Positions 3,575 to 9,850 of a DNA stretch of 18,083 nt are shown here, piece by piece. Origin of the DNA: a virus (taxonomy: Duplodnaviria > Heunggongvirae > Uroviricota > Caudoviricetes); IMG/VR virus record IMGVR_UViG_2651869755_000020. One strand, written 5' to 3'. How positions within the stretch are numbered: the stretch's first letter is position 1; each line of letters opens with the position of its first letter. Position numbers and translations under genes: made by a program. The notes beneath the pieces were generated by a model. It saw nothing but the letters and a program-made list of their open reading frames with translations. It was not told the origin of the DNA and did not search any database.

Positions 3575-3825
3575 TGAAAGAATACCGCTATTCCGGCCCG
3601 GCCAGCGGCGTCACGCTGTCGGACGGAACCGAAATCCTGCTCTGGCCGGGGAAGACGGTTTCCCTGCCGGAGGAGCATGACTACGTGAAGGTACTGGTGG
3701 CGCTGAAGCATCTGACGCCGGTACCAGAAGATACTAAACCCGCCGTCACACCGGCTGTGCAGTCACCAAAGCGCAGAAGCAGCAGTGACAGCGAAGTGAA
3801 AACGGAGGACGCCCATGGCAGCTAA
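3574..3825 (+). CDS. small phage protein of unknown function (Mu gp38-position)
   Basis: ATG at 3574 with AGGAAA/GAGG upstream, overlapping the upstream stop. The track starts it at GTG 3571. C-terminal tail is Ser/Lys/Glu-rich. Overlaps the sheath gene start by 11 nt. Confidence 0.5.
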   Translation: MKEYRYSGPASGVTLSDGTEILLWPGKTVSLPEEHDYVKVLVALKHLTPVPEDTKPAVTPAVQSPKRRSSSDSEVKTEDAHGS

Positions 3826-5242
3826 CTATCTGCATGGTCCCGAAACCATTGAGGTGGAAAACGGAGCCCGCCCGGTTAAAACGGTGAAATCTGCCGTTAT
3901 TGGCCTGATTGGTACCGCCCCGATGGGGGATGTCAATACGCTGGTACAGTGCCTGTCTGAGAAAGACGCAGCGGCATTTGGCAGCCAGTTCACCGGCTTT
4001 ACCATTCCGCAGGCGCTGGATGCGATTTATGACCATGGTGCAGGCACCGTTCTGGTCATTAACGTCCTCGACCCGGCGAAACATAAAACGGCGATCGAGG
4101 ATGAGGTGGTTACCTTTGACAAATCGACAGGGCAGGCCAGACTGGCGCATCCGGTTGTCGCTAATGTGGTGGTGAAAAACAGTGAAGGCAGCACCACCCA
4201 CACGGCGAACACGGACTACCGTGTTGATGCGCAGGCGGGTGTGCTCACGAACCTGGGCAAGGCTATTGAGGCCGGTGGCAGCGTGAAGGTGAGCTATGAG
4301 TACGCGGACCCGTCGAAGGTGACTGCGGCGGACATCATCGGCGGGGTGAACAGCGCCGGAAACCGAACCGGCATGAAGCTGCTTAACGACAGCTTCAACC
4401 TGTACGGCTATTTCGCCAAAATTCTGATTGCGCCGGTGTTCTGCACCCAGAAGAGTGTCGCAGTTGAGCTTATCGCCATGGCAGAGAAGCTGGGCGCGGT
4501 AACCTACATTGATGCGCCTGTCGGTACCACCTTTGCACAGGCTCTGGCAGGTCGTGGCCCGGAAGGCACCATCAACTTCAATACCAGCTCCGACCGCGTC
4601 CGTCTGTGCTATCCGCATGTGAAGGTATATGACCCGGTGACAAACACAGAGCGTCTGGAGCCGCTCAGCCAGCGTGCAGCAGGTCTGCGTGCCAGAGTCG
4701 ATCTGGACAAGGGCTACTGGTGGTCATCCTCCAATCAGGAGATTCTGGGGATCACCGGCGTGGAGCGCCAGCTGTCCGCGATGATTGATGACCCGCAGAG
4801 TGAGGTGAACCTGCTTAACGAACAGGGGATCACCACGGTATTCAGCAGTTACGGCAGCGGCCTTCGTCTGTGGGGTAACCGGACGGCAGCATGGCCAACG
4901 GTCACCCATATGCGTAACTTTGAGAACGTTCGCCGCACCGGTGATGTGATCAACGAGTCCATTCGTTATTTCAGCCAGCAGTACATCGACATGCCGATTA
5001 CTCAGGCGCTGATTGATGCACTGACGGAGTCGGTCAACGCCTACGGTCGCAAAATGACTGGTGATGGTGCGGTACTGGGCTTCCGTTGCTGGTTTGATCC
5101 GGCCCGCAATCCGGAGACGGAGCTGGCCGCCGGGCACCTGTTGCTGAGCTACAAATATACGCCACCACCGCCGCTGGAGCGACTGACGTTTGAGACTGAG
5201 ATCACCTCGGAATACCTGTTAACCCTGAAAGGGGGCAACTGA
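3815..5242 (+). CDS. contractile tail sheath protein
   Basis: 475-aa ORF with GGAGG RBS at 3803-3807. Size and position (immediately before a roughly 170-aa tube gene) are diagnostic of myovirus sheath proteins. Confidence 0.85.
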   Translation: MAANYLHGPETIEVENGARPVKTVKSAVIGLIGTAPMGDVNTLVQCLSEKDAAAFGSQFTGFTIPQALDAIYDHGAGTVLVINVLDPAKHKTAIEDEVVTFDKSTGQARLAHPVVANVVVKNSEGSTTHTANTDYRVDAQAGVLTNLGKAIEAGGSVKVSYEYADPSKVTAADIIGGVNSAGNRTGMKLLNDSFNLYGYFAKILIAPVFCTQKSVAVELIAMAEKLGAVTYIDAPVGTTFAQALAGRGPEGTINFNTSSDRVRLCYPHVKVYDPVTNTERLEPLSQRAAGLRARVDLDKGYWWSSSNQEILGITGVERQLSAMIDDPQSEVNLLNEQGITTVFSSYGSGLRLWGNRTAAWPTVTHMRNFENVRRTGDVINESIRYFSQQYIDMPITQALIDALTESVNAYGRKMTGDGAVLGFRCWFDPARNPETELAAGHLLLSYKYTPPPPLERLTFETEITSEYLLTLKGGN

Positions 5243-5763
5243 TGTCAAAGATTGAGATAAACCGCATCACGAATGCCAACATCTATCTGGATGGTACTAA
5301 CCTGCTGGGACGGGCTGAGGAAGTCAAACTCCCCGATGTCTCCATGATTATGCAGGAACACAAGGCGCTGGGGATGGTGGGTAAGGTGGAACTCCCGGCT
5401 GGTTTTGACAAGCTGGAAGGCGAAATCAAATGGAACAGCTTTTACCGCGATGCGATGCTGTCTGCCGCGAACCCGTACAGGTCGCTGGCACTGCAGTGTC
5501 GTTCCAGCGTCCAGCGCTACAGCTCGCAGGGGCTGATTGACGAAATCCCGCTGGTCACCTTCCTGACGATTATGTTCAAGAAGAACCCGCTGGGGACGTT
5601 CAAACAGCACGAGAACGCCGAGTTCTCCAGTAGCTTCACCTGCACGTATATCAGACAGGTACTGGATGGTGAAGAGCTGCTGCAACTGGACTATCTGGCC
5701 AACATCTTCCGGGTCGGCGGTGTTGATCAACTGACTGACTACCGTATCAATATCGGGGGCTGA
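5242..5763 (+). CDS. tail tube protein
   Basis: 173-aa ORF whose start overlaps the sheath stop. Classic sheath-tube gene pair. Confidence 0.8.
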   Translation: MSKIEINRITNANIYLDGTNLLGRAEEVKLPDVSMIMQEHKALGMVGKVELPAGFDKLEGEIKWNSFYRDAMLSAANPYRSLALQCRSSVQRYSSQGLIDEIPLVTFLTIMFKKNPLGTFKQHENAEFSSSFTCTYIRQVLDGEELLQLDYLANIFRVGGVDQLTDYRINIGG

Positions 5764-5765
5764 CG

Positions 5766-6047
5766 GTGAGTGTTGAACTGACGGATAAAGGAGGACGATG
5801 TGCGGCACTGGGCATGTCAAATGGTACGTGGTTTACCCTCCTTGATATTCCGGGGGTGGAAACCCTTTTTAATACCCGTAAAACCAATGACCCGATTGAC
5901 TGCACACGTTCAAAGGCCCGCAAACTGGCGGATTTGATTGAAGCATGGGAGCCTCCCGACCACTGGTTCTCCGGCATCGGCAAATCTGAGGGAAAGACGC
6001 TTCTCATCGCTTTCCTGCGTAACTGCAAGGGGTTTCGCACTTGCTGA
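5766..6047 (+). CDS. small hypothetical protein (about 77-93 aa, four Cys); possible accessory (moron-like) gene between tube and chaperone
   Basis: ORF in operon orientation starting at GTG 5766 or in-frame ATG 5814 (AAGGAGGA at 5787-5794). Followed by a hairpin terminator candidate. No family recognised. A 97-aa ORF on the opposite strand covers the same DNA, so the coding strand is not certain. Confidence 0.35.
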   Translation: MSVELTDKGGRCAALGMSNGTWFTLLDIPGVETLFNTRKTNDPIDCTRSKARKLADLIEAWEPPDHWFSGIGKSEGKTLLIAFLRNCKGFRTC

Positions 6048-6053
6048 CATCAC

Positions 6054-6080
6054 AGGGGCTCCGGCCCCTTCTTCTTAATC
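6054..6080 (+). terminator. candidate intrinsic terminator (GC-rich hairpin AGGGGC-TCCG-GCCCCT followed by TTCTTCTT)
   Basis: Perfect 5-6 bp G/C stem at 6054-6069 followed by a T-rich run interrupted by C, directly after the small ORF stop at 6047. Confidence 0.4.
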
Positions 6081-6144
6081 TCCTTTAATATCCGTCACGC
6101 GCTTCTCCCGACATACTGCCCTGAACTTACACAGGAGCACAATC

Positions 6145-6480
6145 ATGTCACAGACCCCATCCGATACTTTTAAATTGTCTTATCCCTTCACCACTGCTGC
6201 AGGCACCAGAATTGAGCTGGTTGAACTGAAACGCCTGACGGTAAAAGACCTGAAGCAGGTGCGCAAAATCAGCAAAAACCCGGCAGACTGGGACGAACCG
6301 CTGATTGCCCGCAGTACTGGTCTTCTCCCGGAAGATCTCGACAATATGGATCTGGCTGATTACCTGCAGTTACAGAAACGATTTCAGCTCATCACGGGGA
6401 TGGGTGAGAGCAACCAGGGCGCTGACGCAGGCGCAGGGGCTGCTGGCGAGATGGTTCCGGTTTCAGCCGGGGGAGATTGA
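6145..6480 (+). CDS. tail assembly chaperone (position equivalent to lambda G / P2 E / Mu gp41)
   Basis: 111-aa ORF with AGGAG RBS 8 nt upstream, located between the tube and tape measure genes. Acidic protein, as expected for tape-measure chaperones. Confidence 0.6.
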   Translation: MSQTPSDTFKLSYPFTTAAGTRIELVELKRLTVKDLKQVRKISKNPADWDEPLIARSTGLLPEDLDNMDLADYLQLQKRFQLITGMGESNQGADAGAGAAGEMVPVSAGGD

Positions 6481-6562
6481 TGCCCTCGATACTGACGATC
6501 TGGAGATGTGGCTGGAGCAGGCTGAAGAGCAAATCAAAAGCGAGTACGGCGACAAATCATAG
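6305..6562 (+). CDS. overlapping second frame; candidate frameshift extension of the tail assembly chaperone
   Basis: Open frame overlapping 6305-6480 in the +1 frame relative to the chaperone and continuing 27 codons beyond its stop (...RFQPGEIDALDTDDLEMWLEQAEEQIKSEYGDKS). Protein-like acidic tail. Position matches the conserved chaperone frameshift of tailed phages. Confidence 0.35.
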   Translation: MPAVLVFSRKISTIWIWLITCSYRNDFSSSRGWVRATRALTQAQGLLARWFRFQPGEIDALDTDDLEMWLEQAEEQIKSEYGDKS

Positions 6563-6637
6563 TACAGACAGCCGCCAGTAGCGGCTGTTCTGCGTTATCC
6601 CCTCACGTCTTTTCACCTTCCCCGGAGGTTAACCACT

Positions 6638-9600
6638 ATGTCGGGACAGTTTTCAGTCGGCGTTGTTATCGGCGGGATGATTGGCAGCACATTCCGTTCT
6701 GCAATGAGCGGTACCCGCCGTGCGCTTGATTCCCTGAGCGATACCTCACGCCGCCTGCAGGAACGTCAGAACGCTTTAACCCGTGCAACAGAACGTTATG
6801 GTCAACTGGGTTCTTCCCGGATGCAGCATCTCAACAGCGAGCTGCTGCGGGTAAGCCGCACCATGGAGCAAATTGAGCGCCAGCAGCGCCGTCTGTCAGC
6901 GGCATCCGCTACCAGTGATGCGCTGAAAGCTAACCGCATGGCGCTGTATGGTCAGGGGATTGAAGCGTATGGCATGGCACAGACTGTTTATCATACGGTT
7001 TCCCCTGCCGTTCAGCAGTCCATGTCTTTTCAGGACAAAATGATTGATATGTCGATCACCGCAAAATATGACAATAAAACGCGGGATGCACTTGCCGGAC
7101 AGATAAAAGGCTGGGCGCTTAAATACAATCAGTATCAGGATGAGCTGCAGGAGGCGGTGGGTTCACTCATCAGCGACAATATTGATAATGTGTCAGATAT
7201 CGGTTTTCTGATGCCGGATATTGCCCGCGCGGCAACGGCAACACGCACGTCTGCTCAGGACTGGGCAAAAGTGGCCGCAGTCTGGCAAAACTCCCTGAAA
7301 GGTGCGGCCAGAGATTTTGGTGCCGTTCAGAATATTATGGCTTATGCCGGTGACCAGGGGTCATTTGAAATCCCGGATCAGGTCAAGTGGATGCAGTCCC
7401 TGGCCCCAATGATGGCGGGTCTTGCCAGTGGAAAAGAGGCTGTTGCTGAAATCGGGGCCAGTCTCCAGATAGCAAAAATCGGTGCAGGTTCCACCGACGA
7501 AGCAGCCAATAATTTTAAAAACTTTCTTACCAAAATTTTTGCCCGCGATACTCAGAAACAGTTTGCTGATCTGGGTATTGATTTGCAGGGATCTATTGCG
7601 AGTTATAAAGCTGCGGGGATCTCTCCGATTGAAGGGATGTTGAGTGTTATAGAACGTTACCTCAATGCCAAAAGCCCCGAAGCGCTGGCCGGCTTCAAAT
7701 CAGCCATGAAAATAAAGAATGATACGGCAAGAGATGAGGCACTTCAGGCTCTGGCGAAAAACTTTGGTCTGGGCGATATGTTCGCGGATATGCAGGTCAT
7801 GGCATTTATCCGCCCGATGCTGGCCAACATGGACAGATATCGAGAGATCCGTGCCGGTGCTCTCAGGGCTGCGGATAACGATTTGCTTGCCAGTGCTTAT
7901 GATCAGCGGCTGAAATCTCCCCTTGAAGCCACTAAAACACTTATGGTCAGCAGTCGCGATCTGGCAATTACGCTGGGCGATCAATTAGCTCCATCTTTTA
8001 TTTCTCTGACTCAGGAACTGCTCCCACTCATTCAGGGGACAAAACACTGGGTAGCGACTCACCCGCAATTTGTCAGTGGGGCTTTTAAGCTCATCAGTGC
8101 GCTCCTTGCGATTAAGATAGCGACTATTGGTCTCAAACTGGGGCTGAATCTCCTTATTTCCCCCTTTGTGAACGTCTGGAAAACTACTGTTTTACTCCGG
8201 ACCAACTGGCATCGACTGACTACCGCACTCGGAGAAGGTGGCAAATTACGCTGGCTTGTCACTGGATTCAGCCGACTGACCAGCGGAGGACTGAAACTCA
8301 GCAAAGTTCTGGCGGGCAGCCTCGTTCGCGGTTTTATGAGCGCTGCACGTGCCGTTCTCTGGATTGGGCGAGCGCTGATGATGAATCCCATCGGTCTCGT
8401 TATCACCGCTGTCGCGACAGCAGCTTACCTTATCTACCGCAACTGGGGGGCTGTCAGTGGTTGGTTTAAACAGCGCTGGGCTGACATTCAGGAAGCCTTT
8501 AACGGCGGCATTGTGGGAATTGGTAAGTTGCTGATTAACTGGTCGCCGGCAGGCCTGCTCTATAAAGCCTTTGCGGCTGCGCTGAAATATTTCGGCGTTG
8601 CTCTGCCGGCAAAGTTCACCGACTTCGGTGGCCATCTTATCGACGGTCTGATTAACGGTATCAAAAGCAAATGGGGGTCGCTCAAATCCAGTGTAACCGG
8701 AATGGGTGACAGCATCAGTAGCTGGTTTAAACAGCGCTGGGCTGACATTCAGGAAGCCTTTAACGGCGGCATTGTGGGAATTGGTAAGTTGCTGATTAAC
8801 TGGTCGCCGGCAGGCCTGCTCTATAAAGCCTTTGCGGCTGCGCTGAAATATTTCGGCGTTGCTCTGCCGGCAAAGTTCACCGACTTCGGTGGCCATCTTA
8901 TCGACGGTCTGATTAACGGTATCAAAAACAAATGGGGGTCGCTCAAATCCAGTGTAACCGGAATGGGTGACAGCATCAGTAGCTGGTTTAAACAGTGCTG
9001 GGCTGACATTCAGGAAGCCTTTAACGGCGGTATCGCGGGAACTGGTAAGCTGCTGATTAACTGGTCGCCGGCAGGTCTGCTCTATAAAGCCTTTGCAGCT
9101 GCGCTGAAATATCTTGGTGTTGATCTGCCGGCAAAGTTCACCGACTTCGGTGGCCATCTTGTCGACGGTCTGATTAACGGTATCAAAAACAAATGGGAGT
9201 CGCTCAAATCCAGTGTAACCGGAATGGGTGACAGCATCAGTGGCTGGTTCAGCGAAAAGCTGGGCATTCATTCGCCGAGCCGCGTGTTTATGGGCTTTGG
9301 TGACAATATCGCGCAGGGGGCCGCCATTGGCCTGCAGCGGACCACTCCGCTTGCAGCTCTGGCCGGGCAGCGAATGGCCAGTGAACTGCTCCCCAGAATG
9401 CCCGTGAGCATTCAGGGGCCAGAAATACGGGATAACACTTCAGGTGTTCGCTTCAGTATGCCGTTGCCCGATATCAATGGGTTTATGTCGTCTGCTAAAA
9501 ATGCGATCGGAGCCGTAATCAATAGTTTGTCTTCCATGCCCGTTATTCCGCTCTCCACCCGGGCATCGATTTTACCAGGGCAACGTCTGGCAAATGAGAT

Positions 9601-9850
9601 GACACCGGATGTTCCCCGTATCCCCTCGCCTGAAATCCTGGCTGCCGGATATTCAGGCCGTGGTGCAGCTGCAACCGGCGGTGGAACGTCTGGTGGTATC
9701 CAGGTCAGCTTTAATCCTCAGTTTTTCCTCAATGGCAGGGAAACCACAGCGCCTGCAGGACTGACTGGTGCCCTGAATATGAGTCTGCATGAGCTGGAAA
9801 AAATGCTGGAGCGTCTGCTGGCTCAGAAACAACGTAAGGAGTACCGCTGA
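6638..9850 (+). CDS. tail tape measure protein
   Basis: 1070-aa ORF with GGAGG RBS, the largest gene, directly downstream of the chaperone pair. Has a long helical N-terminal half and internal tandem repeats. Start of the downstream gene overlaps its stop. Confidence 0.9.
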   Translation: MSGQFSVGVVIGGMIGSTFRSAMSGTRRALDSLSDTSRRLQERQNALTRATERYGQLGSSRMQHLNSELLRVSRTMEQIERQQRRLSAASATSDALKANRMALYGQGIEAYGMAQTVYHTVSPAVQQSMSFQDKMIDMSITAKYDNKTRDALAGQIKGWALKYNQYQDELQEAVGSLISDNIDNVSDIGFLMPDIARAATATRTSAQDWAKVAAVWQNSLKGAARDFGAVQNIMAYAGDQGSFEIPDQVKWMQSLAPMMAGLASGKEAVAEIGASLQIAKIGAGSTDEAANNFKNFLTKIFARDTQKQFADLGIDLQGSIASYKAAGISPIEGMLSVIERYLNAKSPEALAGFKSAMKIKNDTARDEALQALAKNFGLGDMFADMQVMAFIRPMLANMDRYREIRAGALRAADNDLLASAYDQRLKSPLEATKTLMVSSRDLAITLGDQLAPSFISLTQELLPLIQGTKHWVATHPQFVSGAFKLISALLAIKIATIGLKLGLNLLISPFVNVWKTTVLLRTNWHRLTTALGEGGKLRWLVTGFSRLTSGGLKLSKVLAGSLVRGFMSAARAVLWIGRALMMNPIGLVITAVATAAYLIYRNWGAVSGWFKQRWADIQEAFNGGIVGIGKLLINWSPAGLLYKAFAAALKYFGVALPAKFTDFGGHLIDGLINGIKSKWGSLKSSVTGMGDSISSWFKQRWADIQEAFNGGIVGIGKLLINWSPAGLLYKAFAAALKYFGVALPAKFTDFGGHLIDGLINGIKNKWGSLKSSVTGMGDSISSWFKQCWADIQEAFNGGIAGTGKLLINWSPAGLLYKAFAAALKYLGVDLPAKFTDFGGHLVDGLINGIKNKWESLKSSVTGMGDSISGWFSEKLGIHSPSRVFMGFGDNIAQGAAIGLQRTTPLAALAGQRMASELLPRMPVSIQGPEIRDNTSGVRFSMPLPDINGFMSSAKNAIGAVINSLSSMPVIPLSTRASILPGQRLANEMTPDVPRIPSPEILAAGYSGRGAAATGGGTSGGIQVSFNPQFFLNGRETTAPAGLTGALNMSLHELEKMLERLLAQKQRKEYR
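8462..9244 (+). repeat. three tandem 261-bp (87-codon) in-frame repeats inside the tape measure gene
   Basis: Unit begins TGGTTTAAACAGCGCTGGGCTGACATTCAGGAAGCC at 8462, 8723 and 8984. Copies 1 and 2 differ at a single base (AAAAGC vs AAAAAC). Copy 3 carries about a dozen substitutions. Confidence 0.9.

Follow-up and report, generated by a model that had tools for sequence, protein, structure and literature searches.

The stretch of viral DNA considered here (IMG/VR record IMGVR_UViG_2651869755_000020; 18,083 nucleotides, hereafter the window) carries the tail assembly chaperone gene of a BcepMu-like prophage of Escherichia coli, together with a second open reading frame (ORF) that overlaps the 3′ part of this gene in a different register. 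Comparison of related loci suggests that both frames form a chaperone pair of the type known as E/E′ in phage P2, in which a minority of ribosomes would slip in the +1 direction at CGA_UUU_CAG and thereby synthesize a fusion protein of 138 amino acids (aa). We assign this reading a probability of roughly 0.7. As to its parts, the alignments make it very likely that some form of recoding upstream of position 6415 joins the two frames, and they point to a probable +1 event at the tetranucleotide UUU_C at positions 6382-6385, approximately 95 nucleotides (nt) upstream of the frame-0 stop codon.

Over the kilobase tested, the window and Escherichia phage PhiKM (genus Bcepmuvirus) share 99.9% identity. 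The overall genome layout of this PhiKM-like host phage is Mu-like, and a matching segment is present in 637 of 5426 complete E. coli genomes (approximately 12%). An earlier reading of the window (the original prediction), made from its letters, had named, among the outcomes that would refute it, a sequencing error behind the unusual relation of the two frames. Such an error is excluded, as the locus has the same layout in the 637 complete E. coli genomes and, of 62 divergent GTDB loci, in 60 (see below).

The product of the frame-0 ORF matches Pfam family PF10109 (Phage_TAC_7, 'tail assembly chaperone E/41/14') with E=5.5e-21 and 74.8 bits (cut-off 25). The match spans residues 8-81, and PF10109 is the only Pfam family matched by the window protein. 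Together with the placement of 6145-6480 between the sheath and tube genes (3815-5763) and the tape measure gene (6638-9850), which is the position typical of chaperone pairs, this bears out the designation as tail assembly chaperone in the original prediction. Residues 81-111 constitute a low-complexity tail that is not conserved, and among relatives the frame-0 tail behind the conserved phenylalanine (Phe) ranges from 1 to 35 aa. The 111-aa frame-0 product is presumably the short and abundant isoform.

Codons of the second frame start at positions 2 modulo 3 and those of the chaperone at positions 1 modulo 3, hence the register is +1 (equivalently −2), and the second frame runs exactly 27 codons beyond the frame-0 TGA. 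The overlapping frame, its register and its length past the stop had each been described in this way before, and each of these elements was checked and found to be correct; the sequence quoted at the time, CCGGGGGAGATTGATGCC, is located at 6467-6484. An open −1 frame likewise crosses the frame-0 stop (6426-6578, 51 codons); stops interrupt it in relatives, and no conservation was found in it. As a side observation, such an open −1 frame could mislead a predictor of −1 frameshifts.

For the comparison, 79 related loci were gathered from viral contigs and 63 further, divergent loci from GTDB genomes, the latter anchored on the peptide of the second frame (alignment of the E′-like extension). Phage records were added, namely those of BcepMu, a Ralstonia phage, two Pseudomonas phages, a Salmonella prophage, a Pasteurella phage, P2, and Mu. 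Of the 63 GTDB loci, 62 contain an ORF of the PF10109 type upstream of the anchor, as detected with a hidden Markov model of the chaperone. The anchor peptide lies in the +1 frame of the chaperone in 60 of these 62, and the other two are same-frame fusions or indels. The 65 loci of the +1 type stem from Enterobacterales, Burkholderiales, Rhodocyclales, Moraxellaceae, Pseudomonas phages, and BcepMu.

The +1 frame is kept in approximately 120 related loci from several bacterial orders, and the consensus of its peptide over the whole set reads ...LW...LLARWFRFQPSEID.L..DDF..W...A..QIK. Judged by profile comparison, the +1 extension is homologous to P2 E′: hhalign pairs the extension profile with P2 E′ at a probability of 90% (E=1.6e-6), and NCBI names stand-alone versions of the +1 ORF 'GpE family phage tail protein'. 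Pfam family PF06528 aligns with residues 100-132 of the fusion at 18.4 bits, and with the window extension alone at 14.7 bits, both under the cut-off of 23, while one member of the clade reaches 23.5 bits. A search of the fusion against NCBIfam models gave no match, and no relatives with a solved structure were found by sequence.

The place at which the coding role passes from one frame to the other was traced with the ratio of amino-acid variants to codon variants, calculated per frame among 57 distinct close relatives. In frame 0, this ratio rises from ~0.39 over 6145-6396 to ~0.82 over 6397-6468 (by interval, 0.14-0.57 up to 6396 and 0.70-1.0 beyond). In the +1 frame it falls from ~0.77 before the switch to ~0.38 after it (by interval, ~0.8, then 0.44, 0.59, and 0.00 after 6398), and in frame −1 it stays at 0.73-1.0 throughout. 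From 6398 onward the pattern in the +1 frame is dominated by synonymous variants, and the stretch 6434-6469 holds 16 codon variants and 0 amino-acid variants. By this measure, purifying selection passes from frame 0 to the +1 frame at ~6385-6400. Selection of this kind on the +1 frame contradicts the earlier suggestion that the extension might not be made.

Stop codons in the relatives delimit the site from both sides. Frame 0 closes in most relatives at a TAG corresponding to window positions 6457-6459, or earlier, and thus upstream of a run of five G (G5 run) that lies shortly before the frame-0 stop of the window. In several Betaproteobacteria frame 0 ends only 1-9 codons past the conserved Phe, and in a common E. 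coli variant found on 914 contigs it ends at 6415-6417, which leaves a protein of 90 aa. When 60 distinct divergent loci are anchored on the TTT codon, the last stop in the +1 frame falls at codon −4 (5 loci), and the first stop in frame 0 at codon +2. Locus L132 reads TTT_TTT_CGC_TGA, and loci L137, L143, and L133 carry a +1-frame stop three codons 5′ of TTC. Provided that the site is homologous across the family, the shift is confined to five codons, 6373-6387. The region near 6440-6480 in which the original prediction looked for the shift is excluded by these data, as frame 0 is closed before the G5 run in most relatives, and both the switch of selection and the conserved UUU_C lie further upstream. 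In the 90-aa variant (L020, L021, P0026), a frame-0 CAG is changed to TAG, and the same substitution is synonymous in the +1 frame (ACC to ACT).

Exactly one in-frame TTT_C occurs within the two-frame overlap, at the homologous Phe, in 65 of 65 loci of the +1 type. T-T-T-C are the only invariant columns in an alignment of 25 sequences and the sole invariant bases in the five-codon interval. The Phe codon at the site is always TTT and never TTC, whereas the other Phe codons in the same ORFs comprise 189 TTT and 119 TTC; GC-rich hosts such as Burkholderia and Pseudomonas favour TTC in the surrounding genes, yet keep TTT at the site. Among close relatives, CGATTTCA is invariant in 35 distinct haplotypes, and the flanking synonymous sites vary. 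The codon after TTT always begins with C (CAG 37, CGC 11, CAA 9, CAT 2, CTG 2, CGT 1, CGG 1). At codon −1, 40 of the 63 distinct loci have the rare CGA, which amounts to 40 of the 41 with arginine (Arg) in that position; elsewhere in the same ORFs, CGA accounts for 9 of 319 Arg codons (2.8%). This conserved rare codon may stimulate the shift from the E site, or it may weaken the P-site complex one step earlier. The absence of a classic heptanucleotide had been pointed out correctly in so far as UUU_C is not a canonical X_XXY_YYZ heptamer, but the site is not near 6440-6480, where such a motif was sought. Three divergent loci (L132, L143, and L147, at ~861-867 in each) read TTT_TTT_C at the site, and their T6 permits perfect re-pairing in the +1 or the −2 direction. 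This sequence may stand midway between P2, with its T6G, and the present clade, with its UUU_C.

Based on this dataset we propose the following mechanism. Most ribosomes would start at 6145, stay in frame 0, terminate at 6478-6480, and release the 111-aa chaperone. A minority would change to the +1 frame at CGA_UUU_CAG (6379-6387), where peptidyl-tRNA-Phe (anticodon GAA) would re-pair from UUU (6382-6384) to UUC (6383-6385); AGC at 6386-6388 would be decoded next, and translation would proceed to the TAG at 6560-6562. The predicted long isoform would consist of chaperone residues 1-80 (6145-6384) followed by an E′-like domain of 58 aa (...KRF-SSSRGWVRATRALTQAQGLLARWFRFQPGEIDALD...), with ...LQLQKRFSSSRGW... 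as the stretch that spans the junction. With lambda G/GT and P2 E/E+E′ as models, binding of the tape measure protein would fall to the N-terminal domain common to both isoforms, the extension would bring in the tail tube protein, and the ratio of the isoforms would be set by a low rate of frameshifting. What the comparison shows is the pair of frames with their homologies, the point at which selection changes frame, the five-codon bound, and the conservation of UUU_C and CGA; we infer that the event is ribosomal and a +1 slip in the P site, how efficient it is, and what each isoform does. A −2 re-pairing is impossible at the UUU_C sequence of the window, and transcriptional slippage was considered and rejected, as a T3 run is too short for it. 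The +1 recoding event that the original prediction had offered as one of two options is supported as the best explanation of the long isoform. We see about an even chance that CGA_UUU_C acts as a structure-independent bacterial signal for programmed +1 frameshifting, with CGA (I:A wobble) as an E-site stimulator, and that the P2 E/E′ family has swapped a −1 heptamer (T_TTT_TTG or A_AAG_GGA) for a +1 tetranucleotide at essentially the same codon, with the two-isoform output kept.

Other explanations of the overlapping frames need to be considered. Without any recoding, the +1 ORF might be a separate small gene translated from a start of its own, for example the GTG at 6404, which gives a 52-aa 'GpE family phage tail protein' that is present in NCBI records on more than 1000 contigs. 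The equivalent ORF of BcepMu (gp42) is annotated as a gene in its own right, and GGGGA is found just 5′ of the GTG. However, the spacing between GGGGA and GTG is only 3 nt, the column of the start codon is not conserved (NCBI lengths are 52, 46, 45 or 39 aa), in five divergent loci the +1 frame offers no ATG, GTG or TTG in the vicinity of the site, and hardly any locus has a Shine-Dalgarno motif. Moreover, independent initiation leaves the invariant TTT_C and the CGA unexplained, and the homologous P2 E′ has no ribosome binding site and is made only as an E+E′ fusion (PMC3931495, PMC3091744); we consider a separate gene unlikely. To a similarly small degree we would credit a shift within the same five codons by another step, in which Phe-tRNA binds the out-of-frame UUC while tRNA-Arg is weakly paired with CGA (I:A wobble) in the P site, or in which the shift takes place on the preceding AAA_C. 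Such a step would account for the strong and otherwise unexplained selection of CGA at codon −1 (40/41 of the Arg codons versus a background of 2.8%); AAA occupies codon −2 in 37 of 63 loci, and a passage in PMC5009743 cites the CGA_AAG site of Bacillus subtilis cdd, a known instance of a shift-prone CGA. On the other hand, 22 of the 63 loci keep TTT_C with other codons at −1 (GCC, TCC, GCA, GTG, TTT, and others), hence CGA is an enhancer at most. The AAA_C is missing from non-enteric loci, and out-of-frame binding predicts the same protein sequence, which renders it a sub-variant of the +1 slip at UUU_C and not a different outcome.

A frame change close to the frame-0 stop, on the G5 run (GCC_GGG_GGA, 6466-6474), would involve a +1 or a Mu-like −2 slip of tRNA-Gly and give the sequence ...VSAG(G)EIDALD.... 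Runs of G are slippery, the proven −2 site of Mu is itself a G5 run (CGG_GGG_CGA; PMC3498833), both the +1 slip (GGG to GGG) and the −2 slip (GGA to GGG) re-pair well, and several database proteins are fused exactly at G5 via 1-nt deletions. In spite of this, such a site is very improbable. In most relatives frame 0 has ended at least 7 codons upstream of it, and the run itself is replaced in relatives by CCTGGGGAG, CCAGGGGAG, CCGAGTGAG or CCGTCGGAG (CCT/CCA GGG GAG, CCG AGT GAG, CCG TCG GAG); within close enteric relatives, the substitutions that give CCT and CCA leave the +1-frame residue unchanged. Purifying selection on the +1 frame starts at ~6398, ~70 nt upstream of the run, and a fusion at G5 would lose LLARWFRFQP, the most conserved part of the E′-like domain. 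The junctions of the database proteins occur at several different homopolymers, which is typical of assembly indels. Least credible of all is the notion of an extension that is never produced, or that persists as a relic without function, with a +1 frame that is open by chance. RefSeq does annotate the frame-0 protein only in the E. coli genome examined, and the extension is known from sequence alone. Yet ~120 loci over several bacterial orders keep the +1 frame open and conserved under purifying selection, its product shows homology to P2 E′, and the frame-0 tail over the same bases evolves freely, between 1 and 35 aa in length.

Further candidate sites were tried and rejected: the G4 run ACG_GGG_ATG (6396-6399), which is not conserved (relatives read ACT_GGG_CTG, ACA_GGC_CTG, etc.), and GGG_GCT at 6436-6441, which varies to GGGCCT, GGGTCT, and GGGACT by changes that are silent in the +1 frame alone. 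Database proteins of 138 aa were likewise rejected as evidence of the fusion, as their junctions lie at different homopolymers and are best read as indel errors. Fusions by 1-nt indels at different homopolymers (G5, an A run, G4, and others) were seen in the proteins P0007, P0009, P0023, P0028, P0060, and P0113 and in the loci L076, L081, L099, and L125. Most likely, these indel-fused proteins and loci are assembly errors; a genuine hard-wired fusion is conceivable, for example in the complete genome of Apirhabdus apintestini (L099).

Several points weigh against the proposed slip at UUU_C. The loci share ancestry, so that counts such as 65/65 overstate the number of independent observations (synonymous sites around the TTT_C motif are visibly saturated despite this shared ancestry). 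The sets of homologues were collected by conserved peptide patterns, which biases them to this clade, and the comparative bound presumes a homologous site in all loci. The frame-0 A-site codon is CAG, a common codon in E. coli (CAG, CGC or CAA in relatives), and no Shine-Dalgarno-like element was found upstream of UUU_C. Neither was a conserved 3′ RNA structure (RNAalifold −0.25 kcal/mol, no covariation); the fold of the single window sequence has z=−1.73, and Rfam gave no match. The efficiency of the shift may be very low. Finally, the predicted fusion protein is known from sequence comparison alone, and Phe-tRNA on the out-of-frame UUC with CGA in the P site would yield an identical protein, so that the exact step is beyond the resolution of sequence.

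In the searchable literature and annotation, the +1 site of this clade was not found described, and no tail chaperone is reported there to use UUU_C. None of the database records examined annotates the fusion as a frameshift product, the PhiKM record annotates the frame-0 protein alone, and a collection of 15 billion proteins contains no exact copy of the 138-aa fusion. Chaperone frameshifts in the +1/−2 register are already established, and the finding refines this knowledge and does not overturn it. What it may mean in practice is that the long isoform is missing or mis-annotated in a widespread group of prophages of E. coli and many other Proteobacteria. Records list the +1 ORF either as a 'GpE family' mini-protein of its own, whose starts are arbitrary, or, in BcepMu, as 'lambda G', and predictors limited to the vicinity of the frame-0 stop or to heptamers would miss the UUU_C site. 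If true, the proposed mechanism would represent a natural and conserved bacterial use of a +1-prone UUU_Y site, among very few that are utilised, and the conserved flanking CGA would offer a direct handle on E-site effects in +1 frameshifting.

Table 1. Features of the tail module in the window, with the elements of the proposed chaperone pair.
Feature	Position	Strand	Remarks
Sheath gene	3815-5242		Myovirus tail module
Tube gene	5242-5763		PF04985
ORF of 93 aa	5766-6047		Between the tube and chaperone genes
Shine-Dalgarno-like AGGAG	6133-6137	+	7 nt 5′ of the chaperone ATG; read from the sequence
Frame-0 chaperone gene	6145-6480	+	111 aa, ATG to TGA (6478-6480)
Second open frame	6305-6562	+	Stop TAG at 6560-6562
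Frame-change interval, five codons	6373-6387	+	Codons −3 to +1 around TTT; bounded by the stops of relatives
Proposed shift cassette CGA_UUU_CAG	6379-6387	+	Frame-0 E-, P-, and A-site codons
Putative slippery tetranucleotide UUU_C	6382-6385	+	In-frame TTT, then C; context AAA_CGA_UUU_CAG_CUC
Predicted +1-frame extension	6386-6562	+	58 codons and stop TAG; +1 peptides of relatives align from Phe onward
E′-like (P2 GpE family) domain core	6443-6541	+	+1 frame: LLARWFRFQPGEIDALDTDDLEMWLEQAEEQIK
G5 run	6469-6473	+	In the region of the original prediction; not a conserved shift site
Tape measure gene	6638-9850		1070 aa; PF10145

Some observations concern the surroundings of the pair (Table 1). The ORF at 5766-6047 is hypothetical in both the PhiKM and the RefSeq annotation, and its best Pfam match, DUF7739, reaches 24.7 bits, below the cut-off of 27. 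Straight after this ORF, 75 nt 5′ of the chaperone start, the sequence holds a terminator-like hairpin at 6054-6069 (AGGGGC-TCCG-GCCCCT, then TCTTCTTAAT), which falls within what is expected to be a single late tail operon. A GC-rich hairpin at 6568-6588 (CAGCCGC / loop CAGTA / GCGGCTG) lies directly behind the stop of the +1 extension, ahead of the tape measure gene; it is without a T tract, was not flagged as a terminator, and its 5′ arm is kept in relatives.

The arrangement can be compared with several known systems. Traits shared with chaperone pairs in general comprise a second ORF, read in another frame over the 3′ part of the first and devoid of its own start signal, and a conserved slippery sequence in the overlap. 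The P2 E/E+E′ system was reportedly described by Christie et al. 2002, the −2 frameshift of Mu gp41 by Xu, Hendrix & Duda 2004, and lambda G/GT by Levin et al. 1993 and Xu et al. 2013, 2014, while the paradigm of frameshift pairs is said to go back to Xu et al. 2004. Judged by their profile matches, the chaperone and the extension of the window belong to the P2 E/E′ family and not to the Mu gp41 family (PF23746).

Likeness to P2 E/E+E′ extends from the shared PF10109 family (74.8 bits for the window protein, 47.8 bits for P2 E) and the homologous extension to the position between the tube and tape measure genes and to the sizes of the isoforms (91/142 aa in P2 (PMC3091744), 111/138 aa predicted for the window). 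The shift takes place, or would take place, at the C-terminal edge of PF10109, at or within ~3 residues of the Phe codon, and a 3′ RNA structure was found neither in P2 (PMC3091744) nor in the window. P2, however, uses −1 tandem slippage on T_TTT_TTG, whereas the window would use +1 with UUU_C and holds no heptamer or T6G. Frame 0 of P2 ends 6 codons past the site, and that of the window continues for 31 non-conserved codons; the E′ of the window ends 75 nt before the tape measure gene, and its sequence scores under the PF06528 gathering cut-off. The homologue in a Pasteurella phage has a −1 extension with the canonical heptamer A_AAG_GGA, compared with T_TTT_TTG in P2 (PMC3091744, PMC3931495).

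Mu gp41 resembles the window protein as a myovirus chaperone with an extension in the +1/−2 register. The Mu shift is a proven −2 event on a G run (PMC3498833, PMC2628397) of low efficiency, ~2.2% (PMC3498833). Mu gp41 differs in that it matches PF23746 (119.5 bits) and PF10109 only marginally, whereas the window protein matches PF10109 only, and comparison of the two extensions by hhalign gave no detectable relation (probability 0.3%). Moreover, the G5 site of Mu (CGG_GGG_CGA) is near the stop and serves a −2 shift, while the G5 run of the window is not conserved and lies past the frame-0 stop in most relatives. Many actinophages and an archaeal virus carry annotated chaperone frameshifts of the +1 type (PMC10274946, PMC5009743). 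The +1 register had been called unusual in the original prediction; it does differ from the canonical −1, but with −2 in Mu and +1 chaperones annotated in other phages it is not without parallel.

Lambda G and GT have a common N-terminus, which binds the tape measure protein, and the rarer frameshift extension binds the tube subunit; the pair is flanked by the major tail gene and the tape measure gene (PMC5009743). The isoform ratio is ~30:1 (PMC5009743), and chaperone pairs require frameshifting at a low level. Lambda is a siphovirus with a −1 shift on G_GGA_AAG, and the likeness is that of a functional paradigm; sequence similarity was neither sought nor found.

With regard to the shift site itself, the window has an in-frame TTT followed by a pyrimidine at 6382-6385 and a conserved +1 ORF downstream, as is expected of a UUU_Y site. 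Passages in the sources that bear on such sites describe UUU_Y as +1-prone in E. coli, as in the argI error site (Fu & Parker 1994), and in Yersinia YopN-TyeA (PMC5009743, PMC3498833). Influenza A PA-X has a proven +1 site, UCC_UUU_CGU, at which the E-site codon affects the efficiency (PMC3498833). These sites have in common with the window the same tetranucleotide and the same proposed move of tRNA-Phe (GAA) from UUU to the better-matched UUC. They act at a low level without an RNA structure (PMC5009743, PMC3498833), as the window site would, and the E-site effect in PA-X may parallel the conserved CGA of the window. The genes are unrelated, however, and PA-X partly relies on the rare A-site codon CGU, where the window has the common CAG.

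The direct homologue is the gp41/gp42 locus of BcepMu (NC_005882). Its gp41 belongs to PF10109, the E′-like motif is carried by gp42, which is read in the +1 frame relative to gp41, and TCC_TTT_CGC is found at the homologous Phe. The alignment indicates that gp41 and gp42 form a frameshift pair. In the BcepMu record, gp42 appears as an independent 'probable lambda G', and gp43 is described as the slippage product of gp42 and as 'lambda T equivalent'; this annotation is probably wrong. As a separate observation, gp43 (locus L082, region 4859-5364) overlies a reverse-strand ORF for a hydrophobic membrane protein of ~80 aa (MNIQSIAEGITYTVIAIAGVVLAVWLF...), and Pseudomonas phage Bise has a minus-strand coding sequence at the position that matches BcepMu gp43. 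Taken together, the same family shifts by −1 in P2 and the Pasteurella phage, whereas members of the BcepMu-like clade would shift by +1 at nearly the same codon, which suggests that it is the ratio of the isoforms that is conserved and not the mechanism.

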